A stretch of DNA of 32,000 bases from Candidatus Saccharimonadota bacterium (lineage in GTDB: Bacteria; Patescibacteriota; Gracilibacteria; UBA4473): assembly GCA_020632335.1 (NCBI GenBank), contig JACKFV010000002.1:1-32000 (forward strand). Direction: 5' to 3'. Of this stretch, positions 4,880-31,645 are shown piece by piece; the stretch's first letter is position 1, and the number at the start of each line of letters is the position of its first letter. The position numbers and the translations under genes were made by a program. The notes below the pieces were generated by a model, which worked only from the letters and a program-made list of their open reading frames with translations, did not search any database and was not told the origin of the DNA.

Positions 4880-4911
4880 AAAAATGCCGAGAAAATCTCG
4901 GGGGAGAGCGG

Positions 4912-4939
4912 TTGACACCGAGCCCGCGGGCCATACAAT
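4912..4939 (+). promoter_or_regulatory. Strong sigma70-type promoter (TTGACA-N16-TACAAT) upstream of the ATPase B gene
   Basis: TTGACA lies at 4912..4917 and TACAAT at 4934..4939. This promoter sits inside the long version of ORF 4884..6332, which argues for the internal ATG at 4962 as the true start. Confidence 0.6.
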
Positions 4940-4961
4940 CCCGACGTTTTATACCCACGTT

Positions 4962-6332
4962 ATGCAAAAAACCTATACGAATATTCAGTCTATCCAGGGG
5001 CCGCTGCTGGTGGTGGAGGGGGTAGATGGGGTGACCTATGAGGAGCTGGTAGACGTGACGGACCAGACGGGGCGTGTGCGGCGCGGGCGCGTGCTGGAGG
5101 TGCATAAGAGTCGCGCGCTGGTGCAGATGTTTGAGGCTACACAGGGCATGAGCACCACGGGGCTGAAGGCGAAATTCCTGGGGCAGACGATGAAACTGGG
5201 GGTGAGTATGGACATGCTGGGCCGGGTATTCAACGGGGCAGGACAGCCACTAGACGGTGGCCCGAATATCATCCCTGAGAAGCAGGTGGACATCAACGGA
5301 GCGGCCATCAACCCCTATAGCCGGAAGATGCCCAAGCAGCCGATCATCACGGGGGTGTCGTCCATCGACGTACAGAACACTCTGGTGCGCGGGCAGAAAC
5401 TGCCGGTGTTCTCGGGTGCGGGGCTGCCCCATGCGGATATAGCCGCGCAGATAGCGCGTCAGGCCTATGTACCTGACGACGGCGGCGAGAAGGTGGAGTT
5501 TGCTATTGTCTTTGGGGCGATGGGGGTGACCTTTGAGGAGGCGATGTTCTTCCAGAAGGAGTTTGAGTCCACCGGCGCGATTGACCGGGCGGCGCTCTTC
5601 CTCAACACCGCCGCGGACCCAGTGGTAGAGCGGATAACCGTGCCACGCCTGGCGCTTAGTTTTGCGGAATATCTGGCCTTTGAGAAGGACATGCACGTGC
5701 TGGTGATCCTCACCGACATGACGAATTACGCTGAGGCTCTGCGGGAAGTGAGTGCCGCGCGGAAGGAGGTACCGGGGCGACGCGGCTACCCGGGCTACTT
5801 GTATACGGACCTGGCGACTATCTACGAGCGGGCGGGGCTCATCCAGGGGAAGAAGGGGTCAGTGACGCAGGTGCCTATTCTCTCCATGCCGGAGGACGAC
5901 GTGACCCACCCGGTGCCGGACCTCACGGGCTACATCACCGAGGGGCAGCTGCGCCTGGACCGTGCTTACCACGCTAAGAAGCTCTCGCCGCCCATCACGC
6001 CTATGGGGTCGCTCAGCCGTCTGGCTAAAGAGGTGCAGGGCAAGCGCACGCGGAAGGACCACGGTAAGGTAGCCGGGCAGATAGCGGCTTGCTATGCTAA
6101 GGGGGTGGAGATGCGCGAGCTGAGCGCGGTGCTGGGGGAGAGTTCGCTTAGCGATATGGACAAGACCTACCTGCGGTTTGCGGATGCGTATGAGAATACT
6201 TTTGTGAATCAGGGTTACGAGACTTTCCGCACACTGGAGGAGTCGCTGGACCTGAGCTGGGAACTGATGCGGATGTTCCCCAAGAGTGAGCTGAAGCGCA
6301 TCTCGCCCGACGTGCTGGACGAGTACTACTAG
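4962..6332 (+). CDS. atpB: V/A-type ATP synthase subunit B (non-catalytic)
   Basis: [33 protein letters not shown], the degenerate P-loop FSGAGLPH and the C-terminal [20 protein letters not shown] are all typical of NtpB/AtpB of V/A-ATPases. Confidence 0.9.
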
Positions 6333-19195: not shown

Positions 19196-20461
19196 TCATT
19201 GCGAGCGCGCAGGGGTATTTGTCTGATGCGCCGCAAAAGACACAGAGCCTCCCTGCCCACCATTATGGGGGGTCTTCCACATCTGTTTAATGGCGATGGC
19301 GCTGAGTACCAGCATGAGGAGAGCTGTGAGGAAATAGGCGGTCTGGAGGCTCCAGGTGTCGGTCATCAGGCCAAAGAGTGGCAGGTATAGCATCTGCGAT
19401 AGCTGCCCCATCAGTGATTTCATGCTGAGGGTGGTGGCGCGCTCTTGGCTGCGGGTATGCTCATGGATCACCCTATTGGTCCAGAGGGGGAAGAGTTCCC
19501 GTGGTATCTGGAAGATAGCGGGCAAGAGCACTGCCCAGAGCGGCGTTACCTCCAGCAGTGCCATGAGGAAAAAGCCGCCACACACGATGGCCACAATGCC
19601 CCAGGGCACCCTCTTCTCGCCCAGCAGCCGCATGAGCCAGGGGCTGAGCAGACTGCTCAGTGCCGCCAGCAGGTTATACCCCGCTAGCGCATAGCCGAAC
19701 CACACTATCGGCACATGGTGCACCTCCCAGTAAGGATTCAGCGTATGGAAGGAGAGTTTCATCCCCACGCCTATCCCCATGGCAAAGAGCATCAGCCACC
19801 ACACCAAGCGCGAGGATCGTAGCGTCCCCACTGCCCGGAGTGCGTAGCTGAGCATAGGGGGCCGTTCATGCGCGGCGTCATGGAGGCGCGGTTCTGTGAG
19901 CCACCACTGGAGCCCTGCTGTGATGACAGAGAACCCCAGGGCCACCCAGAGCAGACTGCGCATACCATAGTGGAGGGCGATAATGCCTGCCCCTGCAGTA
20001 GCCACCACAGCTGCAGCACGCTCAATGGTGCGGAGCCGGGAGGCGACCACGGGGTATCGCTCTCTCGCATTACCCTCCAGGAGAGAGTCTTAGAGCAGGG
20101 CGTCATCAGCACCGGACTCCAGCGCAAGCCCGAGTCCAGCAATTACCTGGCTCAGGATAATCCCCCCAAAGCTCTGTGAGAGCGCAAATAGCAGGATCCC
20201 TATAGCATGGATACCCCGCCCCAGTAGGAGCGATGTCCGCCGGCCGTACTTATCGGCTACGATGCCCGTGGGCACCTCCAGCAGCACAAGAGACGCCGCA
20301 AAGGCTGCCTCGCCCAGCATGACCTGCGTCATACTCATACCGATGAGCTGCAGCTGGTAGAGCACCATAATCGGCGCCCAGCAGTTCCCCAGCCCCATGA
20401 AGAGACTGGTCAGGTACAGCAGCGGGATATTCCGCAGGCTGCGCGTAGTTGTTGTTGTCAT
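19196..20461 (-). pseudogene. MFS transporter, a single 1266-nt reading frame interrupted by one in-frame TAA (20092..20090)
   Basis: ORFs 20090..20461 (MFS N-terminus with motif A GIVADKYGRR) and 19196..20050 (the remaining TM helices) are in the same frame. The 13 codons between them read DSLLEGNARERYP with no further stop. Confidence 0.6.
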
Positions 20462-20633
20462 AGTTTTCTAATTTTGAAGTGAAAAAATATGGAAGTAATA
20501 ATCGACACGAAGAAGCGTCAAAGACCAGATACCTCCCTACCAGTGTAGTGAGGTAAAGCGTTCTATAGTGACTACAGGGGGTAACCAGCGCCACTATGCT
20601 CTGGACTGTACTATAGGTTGTTAGACTTGTCAA
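20462..20633 (-). promoter_or_regulatory. Promoter (TTGACA-N17-TACAGT) plus a 143-nt leader upstream of the MFS gene; candidate cis-regulatory RNA (module A)
   Basis: On the minus strand, TTGACA lies at 20633..20628 and TACAGT at 20610..20605. The leader contains an 11-bp hairpin, TACCTCACTAC-ACTG-GTAGGGAGGTA (20555..20530). It ends in a TATTTTTTCAC box 17 nt before the ATG. It is homologous in layout and partly in sequence to 29072..29255. Confidence 0.5.
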
Positions 20634-20639
20634 GCGGTT

Positions 20640-22601
20640 TTACGCAGCGCCATAGAGGGAGAGCGTGCTGAGGAACTCTCGCTCAAAGTCCGCGGGGACG
20701 AGTGCTCCCACGGCGTAGTAGTCTATCTCGTGAGTTTTTTGGGCGTGGTAGCCTTCTCGCATTTGACGGTCAGTATGGGCTTGTCGCATGATCTGGGAGA
20801 AATCAAATACCTGGATATTGGCCCTGTAGCACGCGTCGAGGAAATGGTGCATGTCCTCTTGCGTCCCGGCGAGATTCACCATACCGTAGAAGCAGTCTGT
20901 GTAGTGTACCTGTCCATCAGCATCTTCAAGCGTATTAGCATGAAAGAGCGGCTGATGAGAGTGCCCCCCAATGCTGATACCCAGCTGTGCCAGAGCGTTC
21001 GCCATAGACCCCAGTGGTTTGCTAGGGTCAGCAATGACTACCACTTTCTTCCGTCGGTAGGCTTCCTCTGCTTCTCTATGAGAAAGCGGCGGCTTGTCTT
21101 CTTTCATCATGGGGAAGAGCACCACGTCACGCAGGTTCGGCTGGGTGGTGAGCAGCGCCACCAGGCGGTCTATACCCATGCCAAAGCCGGTCATCGGCGG
21201 CATACCGTGCTCCATTGCGGTGAGGAACTCCTCATTGACTTCCATGGCTTCCTCATCACCGGCGTCCTTGGCCGCGGCCTGCTCCTCCAGTAGCTGGCGT
21301 TGCGTGCGTGGGTCGATGAGCTCGCCATAGGCGTTCATGATCTCCCATCCGGCCAACACCAGCTGATAGCACTCGCTGGTACCGTCGCCATTAGGCCGCG
21401 CGAGGGGTTTGAGCTCCGTGGGGTAGTGCATCACATAGGTGGGTTGCACCAGGTGCGGGCGGGCTGATTTCTTATAGATGTAGTCCAGCAGGTTGGCGCG
21501 GCTGGTCTTCTCGGCCTCATTGGCGGGCAGATGGTACTGCTCTACGGCCATGGTACGCACCGTCTCATCACTGGCGGAGAAGATATCTAGCCCCGCGTGG
21601 ACCAGCAGCAGCTCGGCAAAGTTTACCTGCGGGAAGGCAGCGCTGGCGTCGATGAGTACGGGCTGGCCCTGCTTATCTAGCACGGTGAACTGCCGGGTAC
21701 CGAGGCACTCATCCAGCAGGGTGTGGAAGAGCCGCTGCATCTCTTGCATGCTCCAGTGCATGTCTTTATAGGCGGCGTACCACTCCAGCATGGTGAATTC
21801 TTGCAGGTGTGAGGGGTCAGTGCCCTCATTCCGGAAGCATTTGCCGATCTCATACACCCGCTCGAACCGGCCCGTCATGGCGAGTTTATGGTCTATCTCC
21901 AGCGCAATGCGCAGCACCATAGGGGTATCCAGCGCGTTGTGGTGCGTCTCAAACACCCTGGCCAGCGCTCCGCCGGTTTGTAGGCCAAGGGTGCGCGTCT
22001 CTATCTCGGTGAAGTCTCGCTCGTCGAGGAAGCGGCGTATGGTGCGGATCACCTTACTCCGCAGCTGGAACCGCGCATAGGTATCCTCATTACTCAGCAG
22101 GTCTAGGTAGCGCTGGCGGTAGCTGGCCTCGGTATCCGTCAGGCCGTGGAACTTCTCTGGTAGTGGCAGCAGGGCCTTACTCAGTGGAGTGATGGTGCGT
22201 GCCATGAGCGTGGGTTCGCCTTTCCTCGTGATGAAGAACTCGCCACCAAAGCCACAGAAGTCCCCCATATCTAGCAGGCGGAGCATCTGCGGCATAGTGT
22301 CACCCAGGACCTCCCCATTCAGGCAGATCTGCAGGCTGCCACTGGCGTCTTGCAGCCGGAGGAAGGCGAGCTTGCCCATCTCGCGCATCTGCGTGATCCT
22401 CCCACAGACTCGCGCCGCATCATGGCAGTCGGCCGTCACCGCCTCCACGGGCCTGAGAGGTTCTCTCTCACACACAGTAATGGCCTGTAGCGCGGTGTGC
22501 GTGCGGTCGTAGTGCTTGGCATAGGTATAGCCGAGGAGCTGCTGCCAGGCCTCGGCTTTCTGTAGGCGGACGGTGCGCTGGTCTCGGGCGTGGGTGGTCA
22601 T
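20640..22601 (-). CDS. lysS: Lysine--tRNA ligase (class II) with an additional C-terminal domain of about 150 aa
   Basis: OB-fold N-domain, class II motifs (FRNEG, GFGMGIDRLV) and a canonical end at ...LRDVVLFPMMK, followed by 153 extra residues. The start at the MTTHARDQ ATG (22601) is supported by CATACT exactly 6 nt upstream. The longer ORF to 22769 overlaps the divergent promoter. Confidence 0.9.
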   Translation of the reverse strand: MTTHARDQRTVRLQKAEAWQQLLGYTYAKHYDRTHTALQAITVCEREPLRPVEAVTADCHDAARVCGRITQMREMGKLAFLRLQDASGSLQICLNGEVLGDTMPQMLRLLDMGDFCGFGGEFFITRKGEPTLMARTITPLSKALLPLPEKFHGLTDTEASYRQRYLDLLSNEDTYARFQLRSKVIRTIRRFLDERDFTEIETRTLGLQTGGALARVFETHHNALDTPMVLRIALEIDHKLAMTGRFERVYEIGKCFRNEGTDPSHLQEFTMLEWYAAYKDMHWSMQEMQRLFHTLLDECLGTRQFTVLDKQGQPVLIDASAAFPQVNFAELLLVHAGLDIFSASDETVRTMAVEQYHLPANEAEKTSRANLLDYIYKKSARPHLVQPTYVMHYPTELKPLARPNGDGTSECYQLVLAGWEIMNAYGELIDPRTQRQLLEEQAAAKDAGDEEAMEVNEEFLTAMEHGMPPMTGFGMGIDRLVALLTTQPNLRDVVLFPMMKEDKPPLSHREAEEAYRRKKVVVIADPSKPLGSMANALAQLGISIGGHSHQPLFHANTLEDADGQVHYTDCFYGMVNLAGTQEDMHHFLDACYRANIQVFDFSQIMRQAHTDRQMREGYHAQKTHEIDYYAVGALVPADFEREFLSTLSLYGAA

Positions 22602-22607
22602 GCGCGC

Positions 22608-22664
22608 AGTATGCGGATTCCTGCCCTGCTGGCAAGTTGACCGGGGGGAGTTTGCCGCTAGGGT
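22608..22664. promoter_or_regulatory. Back-to-back divergent leaderless-type promoters of lysS (minus) and the DUF1653 gene (plus)
   Basis: Minus strand: TTGCCA (22635..22630)-N16-CATACT (22613..22608)-GCGCGC-ATG (22601). Plus strand: TTGACC (22637..22642)-N16-TAGGGT (22659..22664)-AGGGGT-ATG (22671). Confidence 0.55.
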
Positions 22665-22670
22665 AGGGGT

Positions 22671-22907
22671 ATGAGAGAGACTCTGCCGGCGCTGGAGACT
22701 CGGGTGGTCCCCGGCACCTACCGCCACTATAAGGGGAGGCTCTATGAGGTCATCGGCATGGGCCACCACAGCGAGACATTGGAGGTGCTGGTGTTCTATC
22801 GGTCACTGGCGGAGGGGACGCTCTGGGCACGGCCAGCCAGTATGTGGAGCGAAATGGTGGAGTGGGAGGGGCAGCAGTGCCGGCGCTTCACCCGGGTGGA
22901 GGAATGA
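22671..22907 (+). CDS. DUF1653-domain protein
   Basis: 78-aa ORF. GTYRHYKGRLYEVIGMGHHSETLEVLVFYRSL...LWARPASMW matches my recollection of the DUF1653 pattern (Y.HYKG..Y.V...A.HSET.E..V.Y..L...W.RP..MF). Confidence 0.75.
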   Translation: MRETLPALETRVVPGTYRHYKGRLYEVIGMGHHSETLEVLVFYRSLAEGTLWARPASMWSEMVEWEGQQCRRFTRVEE

Positions 22908-22918
22908 GTAGGCACGGG

Positions 22919-22956
22919 AAAAAGGTACTTACTCACATGAATAAGCACCTTTTTTT
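22919..22956. terminator. Bidirectional rho-independent terminator
   Basis: GGTACTTA (22924..22931) pairs with TAAGCACC (22942..22949) with one mismatch. The hairpin is flanked by A5 on the left and T7 on the right. It lies between the DUF1653 gene and the convergent orphan ORF. Confidence 0.6.
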
Positions 22957-23031
22957 GTTTTGGAATGGCTGCTATAGAATATGCAGCCAGTTACCGTTGT
23001 CAGCATTGGAGGAGGAAAACATCCTCTTTAC

Positions 23032-23466
23032 TCATTTCTCGATCGGATAGTAACCAGGCTCGTATTGGTTTTTTTCGACACATTCTATTATGGTCGATAT
23101 AGCAGACAGACTACATTTTTTTGCTCTATTAACATCAGTGAAAGAACCGCCACTTACCCTATAATATGGTCTAGGTAGTATTATATCATCTTTGTGTGGT
23201 TCTAGAAGAGTAGCTAGTCGTGCCCTCAGTGCCGTTTTCTCTATCCGATTGCCGTTTTCTGTATCTACTACAATCTCTAGGAATGTGTACTGTGCTGTTC
23301 CCAAAAGAATAGTTGTTATTGGGTGACAGACTTCGTAAATGACTACATGAACTTCTAGGCCTTTTAGAGCTAGTTGTTCGTAGAACTTTTTTATTATTTT
23401 TTCTTTGTAATCATTAGGGGTAAAAATTCTTTGTAGCCATGAGGCTACTGTCATAAAAAATTTCAT
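23032..23466 (-). CDS. Hypothetical protein (orphan, encoded in an AT-rich islet)
   Basis: It is the only long ORF in the AT-rich segment at about 22910..23660. The 144-aa sequence is protein-like (MKFFMTVASWLQRIF...) and matches no family I recognise. Confidence 0.5.
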   Translation of the reverse strand: MKFFMTVASWLQRIFTPNDYKEKIIKKFYEQLALKGLEVHVVIYEVCHPITTILLGTAQYTFLEIVVDTENGNRIEKTALRARLATLLEPHKDDIILPRPYYRVSGGSFTDVNRAKKCSLSAISTIIECVEKNQYEPGYYPIEK

Positions 23467-23648
23467 ATTTTTTTTGGTTTTAATGAATGAAGAAATATCC
23501 CAACTCGCAGCAATGCTGCCAGCTGAGCTATTTCCTCATCATTTCCTCTTCCGCTATATAAGAGAGCCAGCACCCCACCACAGTGGGACGCAGCCTCACA
23601 ATAACCCATATATATATATTGTCAAGTGTTTGTGGGGGAGAATCTCAC

Positions 23649-23676
23649 TTGCATAGCAGGCTCTTTGTAGCATACT
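23649..23676 (+). promoter_or_regulatory. argS promoter, leaderless type (TTGCAT-N16-CATACT, then 6 nt to the ATG)
   Basis: TTGCAT lies at 23649..23654 and CATACT at 23671..23676, followed by GCGGCT and the ATG at 23683. Confidence 0.55.
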
Positions 23677-23682
23677 GCGGCT

Positions 23683-25356
23683 ATGCAAGACGCTCTGCGC
23701 ACGGTGATTCGGCAGTCTCTGGGGGAGGAAATCGCGCTCGGGGTAGAGCTGCGGCCGGTGCCGGCGCATGCGGAGGGAGACATCGCGCTGACGTGTTTCT
23801 CGCTCGCTAAGGCGCTGCGGCAGAGTCCGGTGGCGATCCTCCAGCAAGTACAGACCGCGCTGGAGCCCCTCCCCTGGGTAGAGAAGCTGGACGCGCAGGG
23901 GCCCTACCTCAACATCACTTGCAGCGCGGCGTGGTACTTTGCGCAGGTGCTCTCTACGCCTGTAGCCTCTCAGCAGTTTAGCGGGCGGCACATTGTGCTG
24001 GAGTTCTCCTCCCCGAATACCAACAAACCCCTGCACCTGGGGCATATGCGCAATAACGCGCTGGGCGACAGCCTGGTGCACCTGCTGCGGGCTAATGGGG
24101 CGGCGGTGACGGCAGTGAGTATCATCAATGACCGGGGGACGCACATCTGCAAGTCGATGCTGGCCTATGAGATAGCAGGAGACGGCGCGACGCCGGCCAG
24201 TACCGGGCGCAAACCAGACCACCTGGTGGGCGACTACTATGTGCTCTTTAGCACGCTAAAGGACGAGGGACGGCTGACTGACGAGGGCGCGCAGGCTATG
24301 CTACAGGCCTGGGAGGCAGGTGATAAGAGCGTACGAGCGCTCTGGGAGCTGATGAATGGCTGGGTGTATGAGGGCTGGAACAAGACCTACGCGCGCCAGG
24401 GGGTGACCTTTGACAAGTGGTACTATGAGTCGGCGCACTATGAAGACGGTAAGCAGCTGGTGGCCGACGGACTGCGCAGGGGGGTATTTACTACACTGGC
24501 AGATGGCGCTATAGCGGCGGACCTCACCGCGGACGGCTATGACCAGAAGATCGTCCAGCGGGCTGATGGTACCAGTATCTACATTACGCAGGACCTCGCA
24601 CTGGCCGTGGCGCGCTATAACGAGTGGCACCCCGACGAGCTCATCTACATCACTGACTACCGTCAGGCCTACCACTTTGAGGTGCTCTTCCTCCTGCTGG
24701 AGAAGCTGGGGCTGCTGAGCCGGGAGCACCTGACGCATATTGGCTATGGTACGATGGAGCTGACCACGGGCAAGATGAGCAGCCGTACGGGCCATGTGGT
24801 GCACGCTGATGACCTGATGGATGAGCTCTCAGCGCTGGCGCGGGAGGAGATACTGGCCCGGCACGACGACTGGGACGCGCAGCAGGTCTCTCTCACGGCG
24901 GAGCAGATCATGAATGCGGCGTGGAAGTACTACATCCTCAGCGTGACGCCCGAGCGTAATATGGTGTATGACGCGGCGGCTAGTGTGCGGTTTGAGGGTG
25001 CTACGGGGCCGTATATACAGTATGCGGGGGTGCGGATCCGTCGGCTGCTGGAGAAATCGGGGGGGTATGATGCCACAACTGCGCCAGTGCTGGGAGGCGA
25101 AGAACGGGCTCTGGGGGCGCTTATTCTCCAGTGGGGAGCCGTGCTGGAGTCCGCCGGCCGTGACCGCAACCCTACCACAGTGGCTACTTATATCCTCGAG
25201 CTGGCACAAGAATGGAGCCGCTACTACAGTAGTGTACGGATCTTAGACGCTGCGGAGCCGGTGCGCAGTAGCCGCCTGCAGCTGGCTGAGAAGACCCTGG
25301 AGGTGCTGGTGGCGGGGCTCTCTATCCTCGGGATACCGGTGCCAGAGGCGATGTAG
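23683..25356 (+). CDS. argS: Arginine--tRNA ligase
   Basis: 557-aa ORF with the class I HIGH motif (SSPNTNKPLHLGHMRN), a KMSK-like GKMSSRTG, and a DALR anticodon-binding C-terminus ending in ...GIPVPEAM. Confidence 0.95.
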   Translation: MQDALRTVIRQSLGEEIALGVELRPVPAHAEGDIALTCFSLAKALRQSPVAILQQVQTALEPLPWVEKLDAQGPYLNITCSAAWYFAQVLSTPVASQQFSGRHIVLEFSSPNTNKPLHLGHMRNNALGDSLVHLLRANGAAVTAVSIINDRGTHICKSMLAYEIAGDGATPASTGRKPDHLVGDYYVLFSTLKDEGRLTDEGAQAMLQAWEAGDKSVRALWELMNGWVYEGWNKTYARQGVTFDKWYYESAHYEDGKQLVADGLRRGVFTTLADGAIAADLTADGYDQKIVQRADGTSIYITQDLALAVARYNEWHPDELIYITDYRQAYHFEVLFLLLEKLGLLSREHLTHIGYGTMELTTGKMSSRTGHVVHADDLMDELSALAREEILARHDDWDAQQVSLTAEQIMNAAWKYYILSVTPERNMVYDAAASVRFEGATGPYIQYAGVRIRRLLEKSGGYDATTAPVLGGEERALGALILQWGAVLESAGRDRNPTTVATYILELAQEWSRYYSSVRILDAAEPVRSSRLQLAEKTLEVLVAGLSILGIPVPEAM

Positions 25357-27573: not shown

Positions 27574-27586
27574 ACCCCCAGTCTAG

Positions 27587-27613
27587 CAAAAAATACCCCG
27601 CCATGCGAGGTAT
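27587..27613 (-). terminator. Terminator-like hairpin downstream of rplY
   Basis: On the minus strand, ATACCTCGC-ATG-GCGGGGTAT forms a 9-bp stem with one G.U pair (27613..27593). It is followed by a U-rich tract, TTTTTGC. It lies only about 14 nt upstream of the ribonuclease ATG. Confidence 0.45.
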
Positions 27614-28304: not shown

Positions 28305-28386
28305 CTCATAGACATATCTGCGCTGGTGTCAAGGGAGTCTGCTGCGTTTACCCTGGCTTGACACCAGCCCCCAGATAGCCACTATG
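28305..28386. promoter_or_regulatory. Divergent rplY / trmD promoters whose -35 boxes lie in a perfect 12-bp inverted repeat
   Basis: Minus strand: TTGACA (28332..28327)-N16-TATGAG (28310..28305). Plus strand: TTGACA (28358..28363)-N16/17-CACTAT/ACTATG (28380..28386). The inverted repeat pairs GCTGGTGTCAAG (28322..28333) with CTTGACACCAGC (28357..28368). Confidence 0.5.
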
Positions 28387-28392
28387 CGGGGT

Positions 28393-29064
28393 ATGCGATT
28401 CGACGTGCTGACGCTCTTCCCCGAGGCCTTCCAGAGCTTTCTCACCACGTCTATCATCGGCCGTGCAGTGGCGGCAGGGCATATAGAGGTGGTGCTGCAT
28501 GACATCCGCGACTATAGCACTGACAAGCACCGCAAGGTAGACGACGTGCCCTACGGTGGTGGCGCGGGCATGGTGATACTCTGCCAGCCGCTCTTTGCCG
28601 CCATAGAGGCCGTGAAGGCCCTGGCAGATGACCACGCGCCGGTCATCTACCTCACGCCTCAGGGGCTAGCACTGACGCAGCAGCGCTGTGAGGAGTATGT
28701 AGAACAACGCCAGCTGCAGCGGATGATACTGCTGTGCGGGCACTACGAGGGCATAGACGAGCGCGTGCGGGAGGCTCTGGTAGATGAGGAACTCCGCATA
28801 GGGGACTATGTGCTCAGTGGTGGGGAGCTGCCTGCGCAAGTGCTGATGGATAGCCTGGCGCGGCTGGTACCCGGGGTACTGGGCAATGATGCGAGCGCCA
28901 AGGAGGAGAGCTTCAGCTTGGCACTGGGGCGCGCACAGGAGTACCCCCATTACACCCGGCCGGCGGAGTACCAGGGTATGCGCGTGCCTGAGGTGTTGCT
29001 CAGTGGCCACCATGCCGAGATAACCGCCTGGCGACTGGCCCATGTGCGCCAGGGGAGAGATTAA
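28393..29064 (+). CDS. trmD: tRNA (guanine37-N1)-methyltransferase
   Basis: MRFDVLTLFPEAF, DDVPYGGGAGMV, LCGHYEGIDERV and the SIGDYVLSGGE-like IGDYVLSGGELPA are present. The ORF-track start at 28384 overlaps the predicted -10. The ATG at 28393 fits a leaderless start. Confidence 0.9.
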   Translation: MRFDVLTLFPEAFQSFLTTSIIGRAVAAGHIEVVLHDIRDYSTDKHRKVDDVPYGGGAGMVILCQPLFAAIEAVKALADDHAPVIYLTPQGLALTQQRCEEYVEQRQLQRMILLCGHYEGIDERVREALVDEELRIGDYVLSGGELPAQVLMDSLARLVPGVLGNDASAKEESFSLALGRAQEYPHYTRPAEYQGMRVPEVLLSGHHAEITAWRLAHVRQGRD

Positions 29065-29073
29065 TAGCGGCTT
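29064..29073 (+). repeat. Left copy of the 10-bp direct repeat ATAGCGGCTT flanking the AT-rich cassette
   Basis: An identical 10-mer occurs at 30153..30162. The two copies bracket the low-GC segment. Confidence 0.5.
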
Positions 29074-29255
29074 GACAAGTTGAAAGGTTTGTAGTACAGT
29101 GCCGGTATTAGTGCGATATGCCGGAGAGGGGAGAGAGGAAAAACGCTCTACCCCTTGCTCTTTGAAATAAAATGTGACCCATAGAATCGTTCCCTCAGCC
29201 GCTGTAGAGCGTTTGTGGTAACTATTTTTTTCACATATAAAAACATACATTAATT
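29072..29255 (+). promoter_or_regulatory. Promoter (TTGACA-N17-TACAGT) plus a 155-nt leader; candidate cis-regulatory RNA (module B)
   Basis: TTGACA lies at 29072..29077 and TACAGT at 29095..29100. The leader has a CCGGTAT/ATGCCGG hairpin. It also has alternative pairings of ACGCTCTAC (29142..29150) with GTAGAGCGT (29204..29212). It ends in a TATTTTTTTCAC box. Confidence 0.5.
29223..29241 (+). repeat. Box TA-T7-CACATATAAA, copy 1 (14 nt upstream of the gene 1 ATG)
   Basis: It recurs as TA-T6-CACATATAAA at 29632..29649, 15 nt upstream of the GTG at 29665. Confidence 0.6.
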
Positions 29256-29630
29256 ATGAGTATTATCTGTTTGTGTTTGCTGGCTTTAGGCCTGTTTGTT
29301 TTGTACCTATTATTGCGCTACTTCACTTATCGTGTTGTATTAGAAAGCACTATTGATCTCTCTGAGATGGCTAATCATTCCCTTGGGTCCTCATTGTCGT
29401 GGCCTGATTTTACTGCCCTTGGAGTGACAGGATCGGGGAAGTGTACTCTTCTGGAGTGCTCTACTTCAGATGACAAGGCTATGATTAAGGTGAGATATTT
29501 TTATCGAATACTGAAAAATGGTATTCCTGTGCTAGTAATACTTACTGAGAAAGAACAGAACCATAATGACTCGGTGACATTGATTATCGAGAGAAACATC
29601 TTTGGTCAGTATAAAGGTTCTATTATCTAA
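29256..29630 (+). CDS. Hypothetical small protein with an N-terminal TM anchor (AT-rich cassette, gene 1)
   Basis: 124-aa ORF. The N-terminal hydrophobic segment IICLCLLALGLFVLYLLL is followed by a soluble domain of about 95 aa. I recognise no family. Confidence 0.5.
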   Translation: MSIICLCLLALGLFVLYLLLRYFTYRVVLESTIDLSEMANHSLGSSLSWPDFTALGVTGSGKCTLLECSTSDDKAMIKVRYFYRILKNGIPVLVILTEKEQNHNDSVTLIIERNIFGQYKGSII

Positions 29631-29631
29631 T

Positions 29632-29649
29632 TATTTTTTCACATATAAA
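29632..29649 (+). repeat. Box TA-T6-CACATATAAA, copy 2
   Basis: It is identical to 29223..29241 apart from one T in the T-run, and it sits in the same position relative to the next ORF. Confidence 0.6.
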
Positions 29650-29664
29650 TTAAATTTAAGACTT

Positions 29665-30117
29665 GTGGACACACTATTGGACATATGGAACACACTTCCC
29701 TTTTTTGTAAAGATCCTGCTTGCATTTATTATTATAATTCCATTGTTACAGTTTTTCTCCAGGTTAAGGTTGAACACTTTTGAACCCATAGTTCATACTT
29801 TCACCATTGAAAATTTTATCAAGCAACTATATGATAATCCAAAACTTACATTAGAAGAAACGACTCCTACAGGAATTAAAGTTTCTCTTGCTTTCCTATT
29901 TAGAAATCAGTATCATTTTGAAGTATATGGTCCTTGGGAATGTCGAGACGAGACTGCGGTAATAGTCGTTTACTGGAAAGTAATAAGTGCTACGGGTACT
30001 ACAACCAAAGGGAAATACGAGATAAAGAAGAATGAATGGTATAATGAACGGTGTAAACCAGGAAAATTCTACTTAAGACGTATTGGGGATTATAAATTTT
30101 ATATTTCTGAAATTTGA
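29665..30117 (+). CDS. Hypothetical small protein with an N-terminal TM anchor (AT-rich cassette, gene 2)
   Basis: ORF track 29602..30117. I prefer the GTG at 29665 because it lies at the same distance from the repeated box as the gene 1 ATG and avoids overlapping gene 1. A hydrophobic segment FFVKILLAFIIIIPLLQFF is followed by a beta-rich domain of about 110 aa. Confidence 0.5.
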   Translation: MDTLLDIWNTLPFFVKILLAFIIIIPLLQFFSRLRLNTFEPIVHTFTIENFIKQLYDNPKLTLEETTPTGIKVSLAFLFRNQYHFEVYGPWECRDETAVIVVYWKVISATGTTTKGKYEIKKNEWYNERCKPGKFYLRRIGDYKFYISEI

Positions 30118-30134
30118 AATTAACGAATACTATA

Positions 30135-30167
30135 AGCTGCTATTCACTGTGGATAGCGGCTTTTTTT
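30135..30167. terminator. Bidirectional rho-independent terminator between cassette gene 2 and der
   Basis: AGCTGCTAT (30135..30143) pairs with ATAGCGGCT (30153..30161) in a 9-bp stem with one G.U pair. It is followed by T7 on the plus strand and by UUAUAGUAUU on the minus strand. Confidence 0.65.
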
Positions 30168-30173
30168 CTGTCT

Positions 30174-31595
30174 CTACTCACTGTCGTTATCTCGCAGGGT
30201 GAGCTTTATCGGCGTACCGTGGAAGCCATACTGCTTGCGCAGGGCGTTCTCTATATAGCGCTTGTAGGTGCGGTGGAAGGCCTTTGTGGTATTCACATGG
30301 ATGACAAAATGCGGTGGCGAGACGCTCACCTGCGCCATATATTTCATCTTGCCCTGGCGGTTCTGGTAGCTGGGCTGCACATGCCCGTAGTAGATCTCGG
30401 GCAGGAACTGGTTGAGCTCAGAGGTAGAGATGCGCTTGCGGCGCTCGGCTTGTACGTTACGGGCATTCAGCAGGAGGGTCTGCGTGCCCTTGCCGGTGTG
30501 TGCGGAGAAGAACACCACCGGGGCCCACCGCGCAAAGCCGATCTTCACCCCCATGTAGTGCAGGTAGCGGCGCTTGATATCGTTGAGGTCCTCGCCCCAC
30601 ATCTTCACCTCGGCTAGCTCTCGGTCATCTGACTCCTCCTCGGTACGGCTTTTTTCGTATACCAGGTCAAATTTATTCACCCCCAGTATGAGCCCCTTGC
30701 CGGCGTCTACTACCTCGCCGATGATGGTGAGGTCCTGGTGCGTGACCCCGTCCAGAGCGTCTAGCATGACGATGCACACGTCACTCCGCTCAATGGCCTG
30801 ACGGGTACGCACCGTGCTCCAGTACTCCAGAGATCTCCCTACCTTGCCCTTCTTCCGCAGTCCGGCGGTGTCGATGAGGACGTATTCATGCCCCTCAGCG
30901 TCGGTGTAGGGGGTGTCGATACTATCGCGCGTGGTGCCAGAGACCTCGCTCACAATGCTGGCGTGCGAGCCTAGCAGCTGGTTCGTGAGCGAGCTCTTGC
31001 CCACGTTGGGCCTCCCGAGGAAGCACAGCCGCAGCGGAGCGGTCTCGTCTGGGGTGGGGGCGGTAGTGCGCAGGGCCGGGTAGCCGCGCTGGGTGAGTAG
31101 CTGCTCGAGCTCCTCCTCCATGGCCGCTACGCCGTACCAGTTTTTACCGCTCACGGTATGTGGCATCCCAAAGCCCATCTCCGTCCATTGCAGCACGCGG
31201 GCCTCGTTGCCGTCGTCTATTTTGCTAGCGAGGAAGAGAAAATCCTTACCAGATTTGCGCACCATATCCGCCACCAGGTGGTCCTCACTGGTGGGGTCCT
31301 TCGTCCCGTCTACCATAAATAGCAGCACATCGGCCTGGCTGAGCGCGAGCTTGGCCTGGGTCTGGATCTCCTGCTCCAGGCTGTCACCATCGTTATTGGT
31401 CAGCCCAGCGGTGTCGATGAGCAGATACGCGTGCTGCTCGCCCTCTACTTTCATCACCACGCGGTCACGGGTCGTCCCGGCAATCTCGCTCACAATGCTG
31501 CGCTTCTCTCCCGCCAGAGCGTTGAAAAGCGTACTCTTACCGACGTTCGGCCGGCCGATAATGGCGACTTGTGGCAGGGCGTGGAGGGGCTGCAT
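30174..31595 (-). CDS. der: Ribosome-associated GTPase Der (EngA)
   Basis: Two tandem GTPase domains (IIGRPNVGKSTLFN and FLGRPNVGKSSLTN, each with DTAG) plus a KH-like C-terminus. TATACT lies exactly 6 nt upstream of the ATG. Confidence 0.95.
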   Translation of the reverse strand: MQPLHALPQVAIIGRPNVGKSTLFNALAGEKRSIVSEIAGTTRDRVVMKVEGEQHAYLLIDTAGLTNNDGDSLEQEIQTQAKLALSQADVLLFMVDGTKDPTSEDHLVADMVRKSGKDFLFLASKIDDGNEARVLQWTEMGFGMPHTVSGKNWYGVAAMEEELEQLLTQRGYPALRTTAPTPDETAPLRLCFLGRPNVGKSSLTNQLLGSHASIVSEVSGTTRDSIDTPYTDAEGHEYVLIDTAGLRKKGKVGRSLEYWSTVRTRQAIERSDVCIVMLDALDGVTHQDLTIIGEVVDAGKGLILGVNKFDLVYEKSRTEEESDDRELAEVKMWGEDLNDIKRRYLHYMGVKIGFARWAPVVFFSAHTGKGTQTLLLNARNVQAERRKRISTSELNQFLPEIYYGHVQPSYQNRQGKMKYMAQVSVSPPHFVIHVNTTKAFHRTYKRYIENALRKQYGFHGTPIKLTLRDNDSE

Positions 31596-31645
31596 AGCCG
31601 CAGTATAGGGGGGAAAGAGGGGCTGTACAGCCCTTGTGTGATGAA

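Follow-up and report, generated by a model that had tools for sequence, protein, structure and literature searches.

An AT-rich islet of two orphan genes between trmD and der in a CPR bacterium: probable import under host-type expression signals

The 32,000-nt stretch analysed here (the window: positions 1 to 32,000 of contig JACKFV010000002.1, from a genome of the candidate phyla radiation, CPR) carries an AT-rich block with two orphan open reading frames, ORF1 and ORF2, between the genes trmD and der. An earlier sequence-only reading had described this block as a horizontally acquired or mobile mini-cassette bounded by a 10-bp direct repeat. The first half of that description held up, as the DNA is foreign; mobility was not shown, and the expression signals proved to be of the host type. 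The explanation that we favour, and hold to be probable, is an imported islet of orphan ORFs (ORFans) which uses a host-type promoter and host-type start signals, encodes two membrane-tethered proteins and carries the 10-bp repeat incidentally. The islet is not an autonomous mobile element, and its signals are not self-sufficient. Its features, in order along the plus strand, are given below (GC3, G+C content at third codon positions).

29064-29073, plus strand: left copy of the 10-mer, which begins on the final base of the trmD TAA and runs 4 nt into GCTTGACAAGT
29070-29100, plus strand: predicted sigma-70-like promoter, GCTTGACAAGT, 11 nt, TAGTACAGT, with 10/12 consensus matches
29107-29222, plus strand: putative 5' leader, ~115 nt, G+C 0.40-0.60, predicted to be structured
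29223-29241, plus strand: box 1, TA-T7-CACATATAAA, ending 14 nt before the ATG of ORF1
29256-29630, plus strand: ORF1, 124 amino acids, ATG start, GC3 0.41
29632-29649, plus strand: box 2, TA-T6-CACATATAAA, ending 15 nt before GTG 29665
29665-30117, plus strand: ORF2, 150 amino acids from the GTG, GC3 0.30
30134-30167, plus strand: intrinsic terminator, 13-bp stem, 3-nt loop, then T7
30153-30162, plus strand: right copy of the 10-mer, 3' arm of the terminator hairpin

The block is set apart first of all by its base composition. It lies between the convergent genes trmD (28384-29064, plus strand) and der (30174-31595, minus strand). By eye, the segment had been put at about one-third G+C against about 60% in the flanks, and sliding windows and a change-point fit confirm this. 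In windows of 200 nt, G+C is 0.30-0.43 over ~29100-30200 compared with 0.55-0.67 in the flanks, and a likelihood fit with two change points gives 0.35 within the block and 0.60 outside. The fit places the left boundary at 29159 and the right boundary at 30191, with ranges of 29054-29220 and 30136-30211 at a log-likelihood (lnL) difference of 2; a left boundary at 29074 and one at ~29160-29220 fit the composition alike. Codon usage, a check proposed at the outset, agrees: GC3 is 0.41 in ORF1 and 0.30 in ORF2 compared with 0.57-0.82 across 22 host genes, and both ORFs are foreign by this measure. The analysis supports a block that is foreign in composition and in codon usage.

Like the composition shift and the box, the two long reading frames go far beyond what chance would give. 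A 911-nt block at 34% G+C has, on a single strand, two runs without a stop codon (177 and 129 codons). When this block was shuffled (n = 5000), a single run of at least 124 codons appeared in 0.5% of the shuffles and two such runs in 0/5000; ORF1 and ORF2 are therefore very likely genes, or were so recently. As for the start of ORF2, the candidates are TTG 29602, GTG 29665 and TTG 29677, and an in-frame ATG is absent. GTG 29665 is preferred because it makes the spacing from box to start near-equal in both ORFs; the public gene call also uses the 150-amino-acid GTG form.

Neither protein has a detectable relative. ORF2 is a strict singleton: neither 5.8 billion clusters nor a full phmmer search over 1.84 billion representative proteins gave a match other than itself. 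ORF1 gave zero matches in the public protein collection, itself included, and exact-sequence look-ups of ORF1, TrmD and P0001 returned no record. Both proteins were negative in the Pfam, PHROGs, PADLOC, NCBIfam, PDB, phage, plasmid and IMG/VR searches, where the best PHROG scores (E = 0.03 and 0.083) were not significant, and the islet DNA had no match among phage and plasmid sequences. Neither ORF matches any transposase family in Pfam or NCBIfam, and no toxin, immunity or defence domain was found in them at E up to 1 in PADLOC, Pfam and NCBIfam. Paralogy between ORF1 and ORF2 was considered and rejected, as the two proteins are not detectably related (E = 0.094).

The two proteins have a similar layout. 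ORF1 consists of a transmembrane (TM) helix at residues ~2-20, the motif RYFTYR and then a low-confidence, mostly beta-strand part of ~100 residues, and ORF2 of an acidic N-terminal tail, a TM helix at residues ~11-31, the motif SRLRL and a beta-rich domain of ~115 residues. The hydropathy peaks of the helices are 2.9 and 2.6. Structure prediction, which had been suggested for both proteins, succeeded in part: AlphaFold2 without alignment predicted the helices with confidence (pLDDT 86-94; ORF1 residues 3-30, ORF2 residues 13-37), but the remainder of both proteins was beta-rich at pLDDT 31-60, and the soluble domains are to be read at that level. The claim of two orphan proteins with one N-terminal TM helix each is supported by homology searches, AlphaFold2 and hydropathy, and both would be single-pass membrane proteins. 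In both, no lysine or arginine precedes the helix and two arginines directly follow it. Because the basic residues follow the TM helix, the positive-inside rule points to an N-out/C-in topology, in which the beta-rich domains would be cytoplasmic, at the inner face of the membrane. The idea of an exported effector/immunity pair, which had been offered as speculation, is disfavoured by this charge distribution.

The expression signals of the islet are of a type found elsewhere in the window. The promoter is composed of a -35 element TTGACA (29072-29077), a spacer of 17 nt and a -10 element TACAGT (29095-29100); the extended -35 block GCTTGACAAGT covers the 11 nt from 29070 to 29080. The sequence-only reading had taken this for the cassette's own promoter. 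That view was not borne out, as both blocks occur again, with their spacing unchanged, 8.5 kb away, upstream of a host gene of the major facilitator superfamily (MFS), where the core of the box is also found.

20605-20635, minus strand: twin promoter GCTTGACAAGT-N11-TAGTACAGT, between the lysyl-tRNA synthetase gene, whose stop codon it follows directly, and the MFS gene downstream
20479-20487, minus strand: box core TTTTTTCAC for the third time, with the MFS start codon (ATG, 20461) 17 nt downstream

The MFS gene has a normal composition (GC3 0.72). No place in the window gives a better local alignment with the islet leader than the twin site, whose score is reached by 0/1004 segments and 2/1000 shuffles. 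Past the promoter, the leaders of the islet and of the MFS gene share only short motifs (AACGCTYTACCYC), which lie on different hairpin arms. The two would have a promoter type in common, and no conserved RNA is claimed. The MFS gene itself (19196-20461, minus strand) contains an in-frame TAA at ~20090-20092 (…GADDALL*DSLLEG…), beyond which the frame continues; a pseudogene, a sequencing error or read-through could account for it.

Between promoter and box 1, the leader folds at -44.1 kcal/mol (z = -3.08 vs shuffles) and holds a perfect 11-bp inverted repeat (29141-29151 / 29204-29214). Its ATGTGA (29172-29177) is complementary to the TCACAT in box 1, and this pairing could sequester the start region. 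In a comparison with Rfam, no family reached its gathering threshold, and a sub-threshold match to L10_leader was set aside, as it is the terminator itself. The terminator hairpin at the far end of the unit folds at -16.8 kcal/mol (z = -4.9), and folding confirmed that the right copy of the 10-mer forms its 3' arm, as had been proposed. On the minus strand, the same sequence reaches only -9.3 kcal/mol and lacks a T-run, which argues that the terminator serves the plus-strand unit and not der.

The box in front of each ORF is a real repeated signal. The sequence-only reading had noticed a near-identical element at the same distance (14-15 nt) before each start, and the match is in fact an exact 16-mer, TTTTTTCACATATAAA, at 29226-29241 and 29634-29649, with 0 copies expected by chance. 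With its flanks, the element reads TAA[C/T]TA-T7/T6-CACATATAAA, and box 2 begins 2 nt past the stop codon of ORF1. Folding predicts no structure in the RNA around the boxes (z = +1.6 for box 1, +0.26 for box 2), and neither start is accompanied by a Shine-Dalgarno sequence. The proposed search for further copies yielded only the two full 16-mers in the window, but the core TTTTTTCAC has a third copy. All three copies (0.05 expected in 32 kb) are on the coding strand, 17-22 nt upstream of a start codon. Since TTTTTTCAC also precedes the MFS gene of normal composition, the box is not private to the islet, and it is best read as a start signal compatible with the host and not specific to a cassette.

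Other roles for the box were tried. As a -35 element (TTCACA) it was rejected, as a fitting -10 element would overlap or follow the start codons, and its T-run was rejected as an attenuator or terminator, as folding gave no adjoining hairpin. The motif TTTTT[TC]CAC was not used systematically at starts in 11 related loci (L001-L163), and the 16-mer had only single-copy matches in IMG/VR, a chance-like pattern.

The shift in composition, the two ORFs, the box, the match between the promoters, the terminator and the lack of relatives are direct observations, which may be arranged into the following history. A segment of ~0.95-1.1 kb from an AT-rich source would have been fixed in the convergent spacer between trmD and der, in a Peregrinibacteria/Peribacteria-like CPR chromosome of 60% G+C. 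Possible sources are a plasmid, a phage that has not been sampled and a relative richer in AT with the same expression signals. Transcription would proceed as one unit from the host-type promoter at 29070-29100 through the structured leader of ~115 nt, and end at the intrinsic terminator at 30134-30167. Each cistron would be translated from a start 14-15 nt after a U-rich/A-rich, unstructured box that lacks a Shine-Dalgarno sequence, and the box is most likely a translation-initiation enhancer; alternatively, the TATAAA within it might be an internal -10 element. The products most plausibly belong to the small accessory membrane factors that derive from mobile elements, for instance exclusion or host-interaction proteins. 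The 10-bp repeat is most likely incidental, with one copy in the promoter and the other in the terminator stem.

Several points weigh against this explanation. Import is deduced from composition alone, because neither a donor nor a homologue nor an empty site came to light. ORF1 is missing from the public protein collection, where ORF2 and Der of the same contig are present, and the gene caller apparently skipped it; ORF2, for its part, has no ATG start. Nor does the explanation account in full for a 10-bp repeat at the two edges (p about 0.01-0.025). Furthermore, a specific protein- or RNA-binding role of the box is possible, since an exact identity over 16 nt exceeds the needs of a loose enhancer.

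The alternative that survives best, although we judge it unlikely, is a decaying remnant of an import. The ORFs would be open but non-functional or unexpressed, the box and the terminator would be leftovers of the donor, and the succession of TAA, box and start would go back to an intergenic module that was repeated along a longer donor operon. Box 1, like box 2, does come after a TAA, which looks like the end of a truncated donor gene upstream. The remnant is also favoured by homologues that were found nowhere, by the lack of ORF1 in the public gene call and by the restriction of ORF2 to GTG or TTG starts; the in-frame TAA of the MFS gene behind the twin promoter indicates that decay occurs in the region. 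However, two long intact ORFs nearly fill the block of 34% G+C, which is improbable without purifying selection, and they have a host-type promoter directly upstream and a strong terminator downstream. Moreover, CPR genomes are compact (~1.25 Mb in Peribacteria; PMC4736985).

The next alternative, which we regard as improbable, is the mobile mini-cassette itself. A unit of 1079 bp (29074-30152) would have been inserted at ATAGCGGCTT, or integrated there from a small circle in the manner of Campbell; the insertion would have duplicated the 10-mer, and the recombinase would be supplied in trans from another locus. The claim that a direct repeat brackets the unit stands as far as the exact copies go (ATAGCGGCTT at 29064-29073 and 30153-30162), but their significance is marginal. 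Words of at least 10 nt are shared by 0.9% of shuffled spacer pairs and by 2.5% of equally spaced pairs of real segments, so only 0.9-2.5% of control pairs equal the repeat at the two edges of the block. The composition boundaries are compatible with edges at the 10-mers (lnL drops of 2.4 and 3.0), and the right copy belongs to a hairpin that closes the unit on its 3' side, in a geometry loosely like that of an integron cassette. The proposed search for further copies showed that the word is rare (0.04-0.09 copies per strand expected under Markov models of order 2-5), but it also turned up a third exact copy in a core gene, at 6081-6090 within the gene of an A/V-type ATPase alpha/beta-family subunit (4884-6332); the sub-word ATAGCGG is common, with 11 copies on the plus strand of the window.

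The left junction is a further difficulty for the mini-cassette. It would split the promoter block into GCTT and GACAAGT, whereas this 11-nt element is intact at the host gene, and a junction at 29073/29074 is disfavoured because the insertion would have had to rebuild the host's GCTTGACAAGT by accident. Terminal inverted repeats are absent inside the 10-mers, where GACAAGTTGAAAGG... and ...GCTGCTATTCACTGTGG are not complementary. Pfam scans of the main ORFs of the window found no recombinase or integrase domain, in agreement with the earlier remark that none was recognisable, and the unit has no second copy within the window. The hairpin of 29 nt lacks unpaired spacers, and GTTRRRY is absent. 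As a signal of mobility, the 10-bp repeat, which was picked post hoc by eye, is marginal and suggestive at best. A bolder version of the mini-cassette would make the 1089-bp unit a new kind of CPR element, integrase-independent or mobilised in trans, in which a 10-bp core becomes the 3' arm of the unit's own hairpin. Its geometry would be integron-like without attC or IntI, and a portable module of GCTTGACAAGT-N11-TAGTACAGT and T6CAC would also have supplied the control region of the MFS gene. We consider this version very improbable.

The surroundings of the islet are those of an ordinary chromosome of ~60% G+C. Pfam support for trmD (tRNA_m1G_MT, 8.8e-53) and der (two MMR_HSR1 domains and KH_dom-like) is clear, and the other genes identified by Pfam in the 32-kb window include aminoacyl-tRNA synthetases, ftsA/ftsZ, priA, pyruvate:ferredoxin oxidoreductase, the A/V-type ATPase subunit and ribosomal protein L25. 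No phage gene was found in the window in the Pfam scans of the main ORFs. Scans for TrmD in genome and in metagenome contigs each gave at least 600 matches, in which the CGHYEGID pattern is conserved. Among the matches listed, the closest come from metagenome-assembled genomes of Candidatus Peregrinibacteria/Peribacteria at no more than 61% identity, and der, ORF1 and ORF2 are never nearby; the closest Der protein is also 61% identical. The gene context of the two closest Der proteins shows no synteny with the trmD-der locus, and none of the relatives retrieved has trmD and der side by side. The sequence-only reading had noted that rplS does not follow trmD, which carries no weight, as two relatives (L001 and L002) also lack ribosomal-protein genes after trmD.

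Because its nearest TrmD and Der are only 61% identical, the host probably belongs to a deep CPR lineage that is essentially unsampled. Complete Peribacteria genomes have a mean G+C of 58.5% and a size of 1.25 Mb (PMC4736985). The related genomes span 40% to 58% G+C, which makes AT-rich donors with compatible signals plausible. The least probable alternative, native, fast-evolving, lineage-specific genes that owe their AT-richness to local constraints and not to foreign ancestry, can draw on the host-type promoter and box core and on an isolation of the lineage (nearest 61% identical) in which missing homologues indicate import only weakly, but a GC3 of 0.30-0.41 vs 0.57-0.82 cannot come from protein-level selection, and core genes of the same isolated lineage, such as der, still retrieve thousands of homologues.

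The islet has a counterpart in the window. A second AT-rich islet lies at ~22920-23620 (G+C 0.40-0.47), between a DUF1653 gene and argS, and contains one orphan.

23032-23466, minus strand: ORF of the second islet, 144 amino acids, GC3 0.28, without a TM helix

This ORF has no match in Pfam, PHROG, PADLOC, NCBIfam, phage or IMG/VR searches and is unlike ORF1 and ORF2. The two islets have no sequence, box or flanking repeat in common, and no word longer than an 8-nt T-run is common to the flanks of the second. The presence of this islet suggests that small AT-rich orphan insertions recur in the genome. No AT-rich islet was found in 16 other loci (at least 5 kb, G+C of at least 0.52), a sample which is small and mostly unrelated. 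At 22921-22957, the sequence A5-GGTACTTACTCACATGAATAAGCACC-T7 resembles a bidirectional intrinsic terminator common to the convergent DUF1653 gene and the 144-amino-acid ORF.

Further observations concern gene starts in the host. Most host genes have a -10-like hexamer (TAnnnT or CAnnnT) 6-7 nt before the ATG and lack a Shine-Dalgarno sequence. Examples are argS CATACTgcggctATG, der TATACTgcggctATG and TAGACTgggggtATG, and the sites include 23668-23685 (argS), 31596-31612 (der, minus strand), 27574-27590 (beta-CASP, minus strand) and 22655-22673 (DUF1653). The genes argS and der also have the 13-mer TACTGCGGCTATG in common across their starts. Because these hexamers lie only 6-7 nt before the ATG, they suggest that leaderless mRNAs are widespread in the host. 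The islet and the MFS gene appear to be leadered exceptions, both with a T6CAC start region. As for trmD, its start is probably the second ATG (28393) and not 28384: its relatives all align from residue 4, with starts that read MRFD/MLFH, and a CACTAT hexamer lies 7 nt upstream of the second ATG. The divergent spacer between L25 and trmD (28322-28368) holds a perfect 12-nt inverted repeat, GCTGGTGTCAAG / CTTGACACCAGC, which puts a TTGACA -35 on both strands and would thereby form mirror-image divergent promoters. The lysyl-tRNA synthetase (20640-22769, minus strand) combines a class II core and an OB anticodon domain with a long N-terminal extension, and carries a DUF2000 domain at its C-terminus (residues 574-689).

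If the import explanation is true, the islet is one more case of bacteria wiring short AT-rich orphan genes to resident expression signals, and it comes from a very poorly sampled CPR lineage. The module of GCTTGACAAGT-N11-TAGTACAGT and TTTTTTCAC could help to annotate gene starts in this lineage. The two membrane-anchored singletons would be candidate proteins with strain-specific functions at the surface or in phage interaction, in a bacterium of the episymbiotic type. The practical value is modest, and no long-standing question is opened.

Several known systems offer themselves for comparison. Phage morons, as described by Hendrix and colleagues, are independent units of promoter, gene and terminator with an atypical composition, inserted between two genes. 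The islet resembles them in its predicted promoter and terminator, its deviant composition, its position between unrelated genes and its small membrane proteins. Unlike a moron, it is flanked by the housekeeping genes trmD and der and not by prophage genes, and its promoter is identical to a host promoter.

With an integron cassette or a lone attC site, the islet has in common a size of ~1 kb and a short direct repeat, the downstream copy of which forms the 3' arm of a hairpin beyond the last ORF. The attC sites measure 57-141 nt and contain R''/L''/L'/R' boxes and a GTTRRRY core. In contrast, the islet hairpin is 29 nt long, with a fully paired 13-bp stem and without such boxes or extrahelical bases; the islet has a T7 tail and a predicted promoter and lacks GTTRRRY, and no integrase domain accompanies it among the main ORFs scanned with Pfam. 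A discrete block between copies of a 10-bp direct repeat could recall the target-site duplication of insertion sequence (IS) elements and miniature inverted-repeat transposable elements (MITEs), although the repeat is of marginal significance and one copy is part of a promoter element shared with a host gene; terminal inverted repeats, a transposase and a second copy in the window are missing. Membership in the IS/MITE and integron-cassette groups was rejected on these defining features.

The likeness to the ORFans and islets of E. coli goes further. ORFans are typically short, AT-rich and mostly imported, often without phage homologues in databases (PMC2275313; PMC13012023). Like the islet genes, those of E. 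coli are short, AT-richer than their host and atypical in codon usage, lack homologues or an assignable function, and are clustered between core genes (PMC2275313; PMC13012023). The compositional contrast is larger here, at 35% vs 60% G+C for the islet compared with 44% vs 47% for E. coli ORFans (PMC2275313; PMC13012023). Acquisition in E. coli is defined by phylogenetic presence and absence, whereas the islet host is a CPR bacterium without a sequenced close relative. The homologues of the islet genes are undetectable, and their composition and codon usage deviate from those of the resident genome, as expected of an ORFan islet. Among known categories, the nearest is the AT-rich, short, homologue-less transferred ORFan (PMC2275313; PMC13012023).

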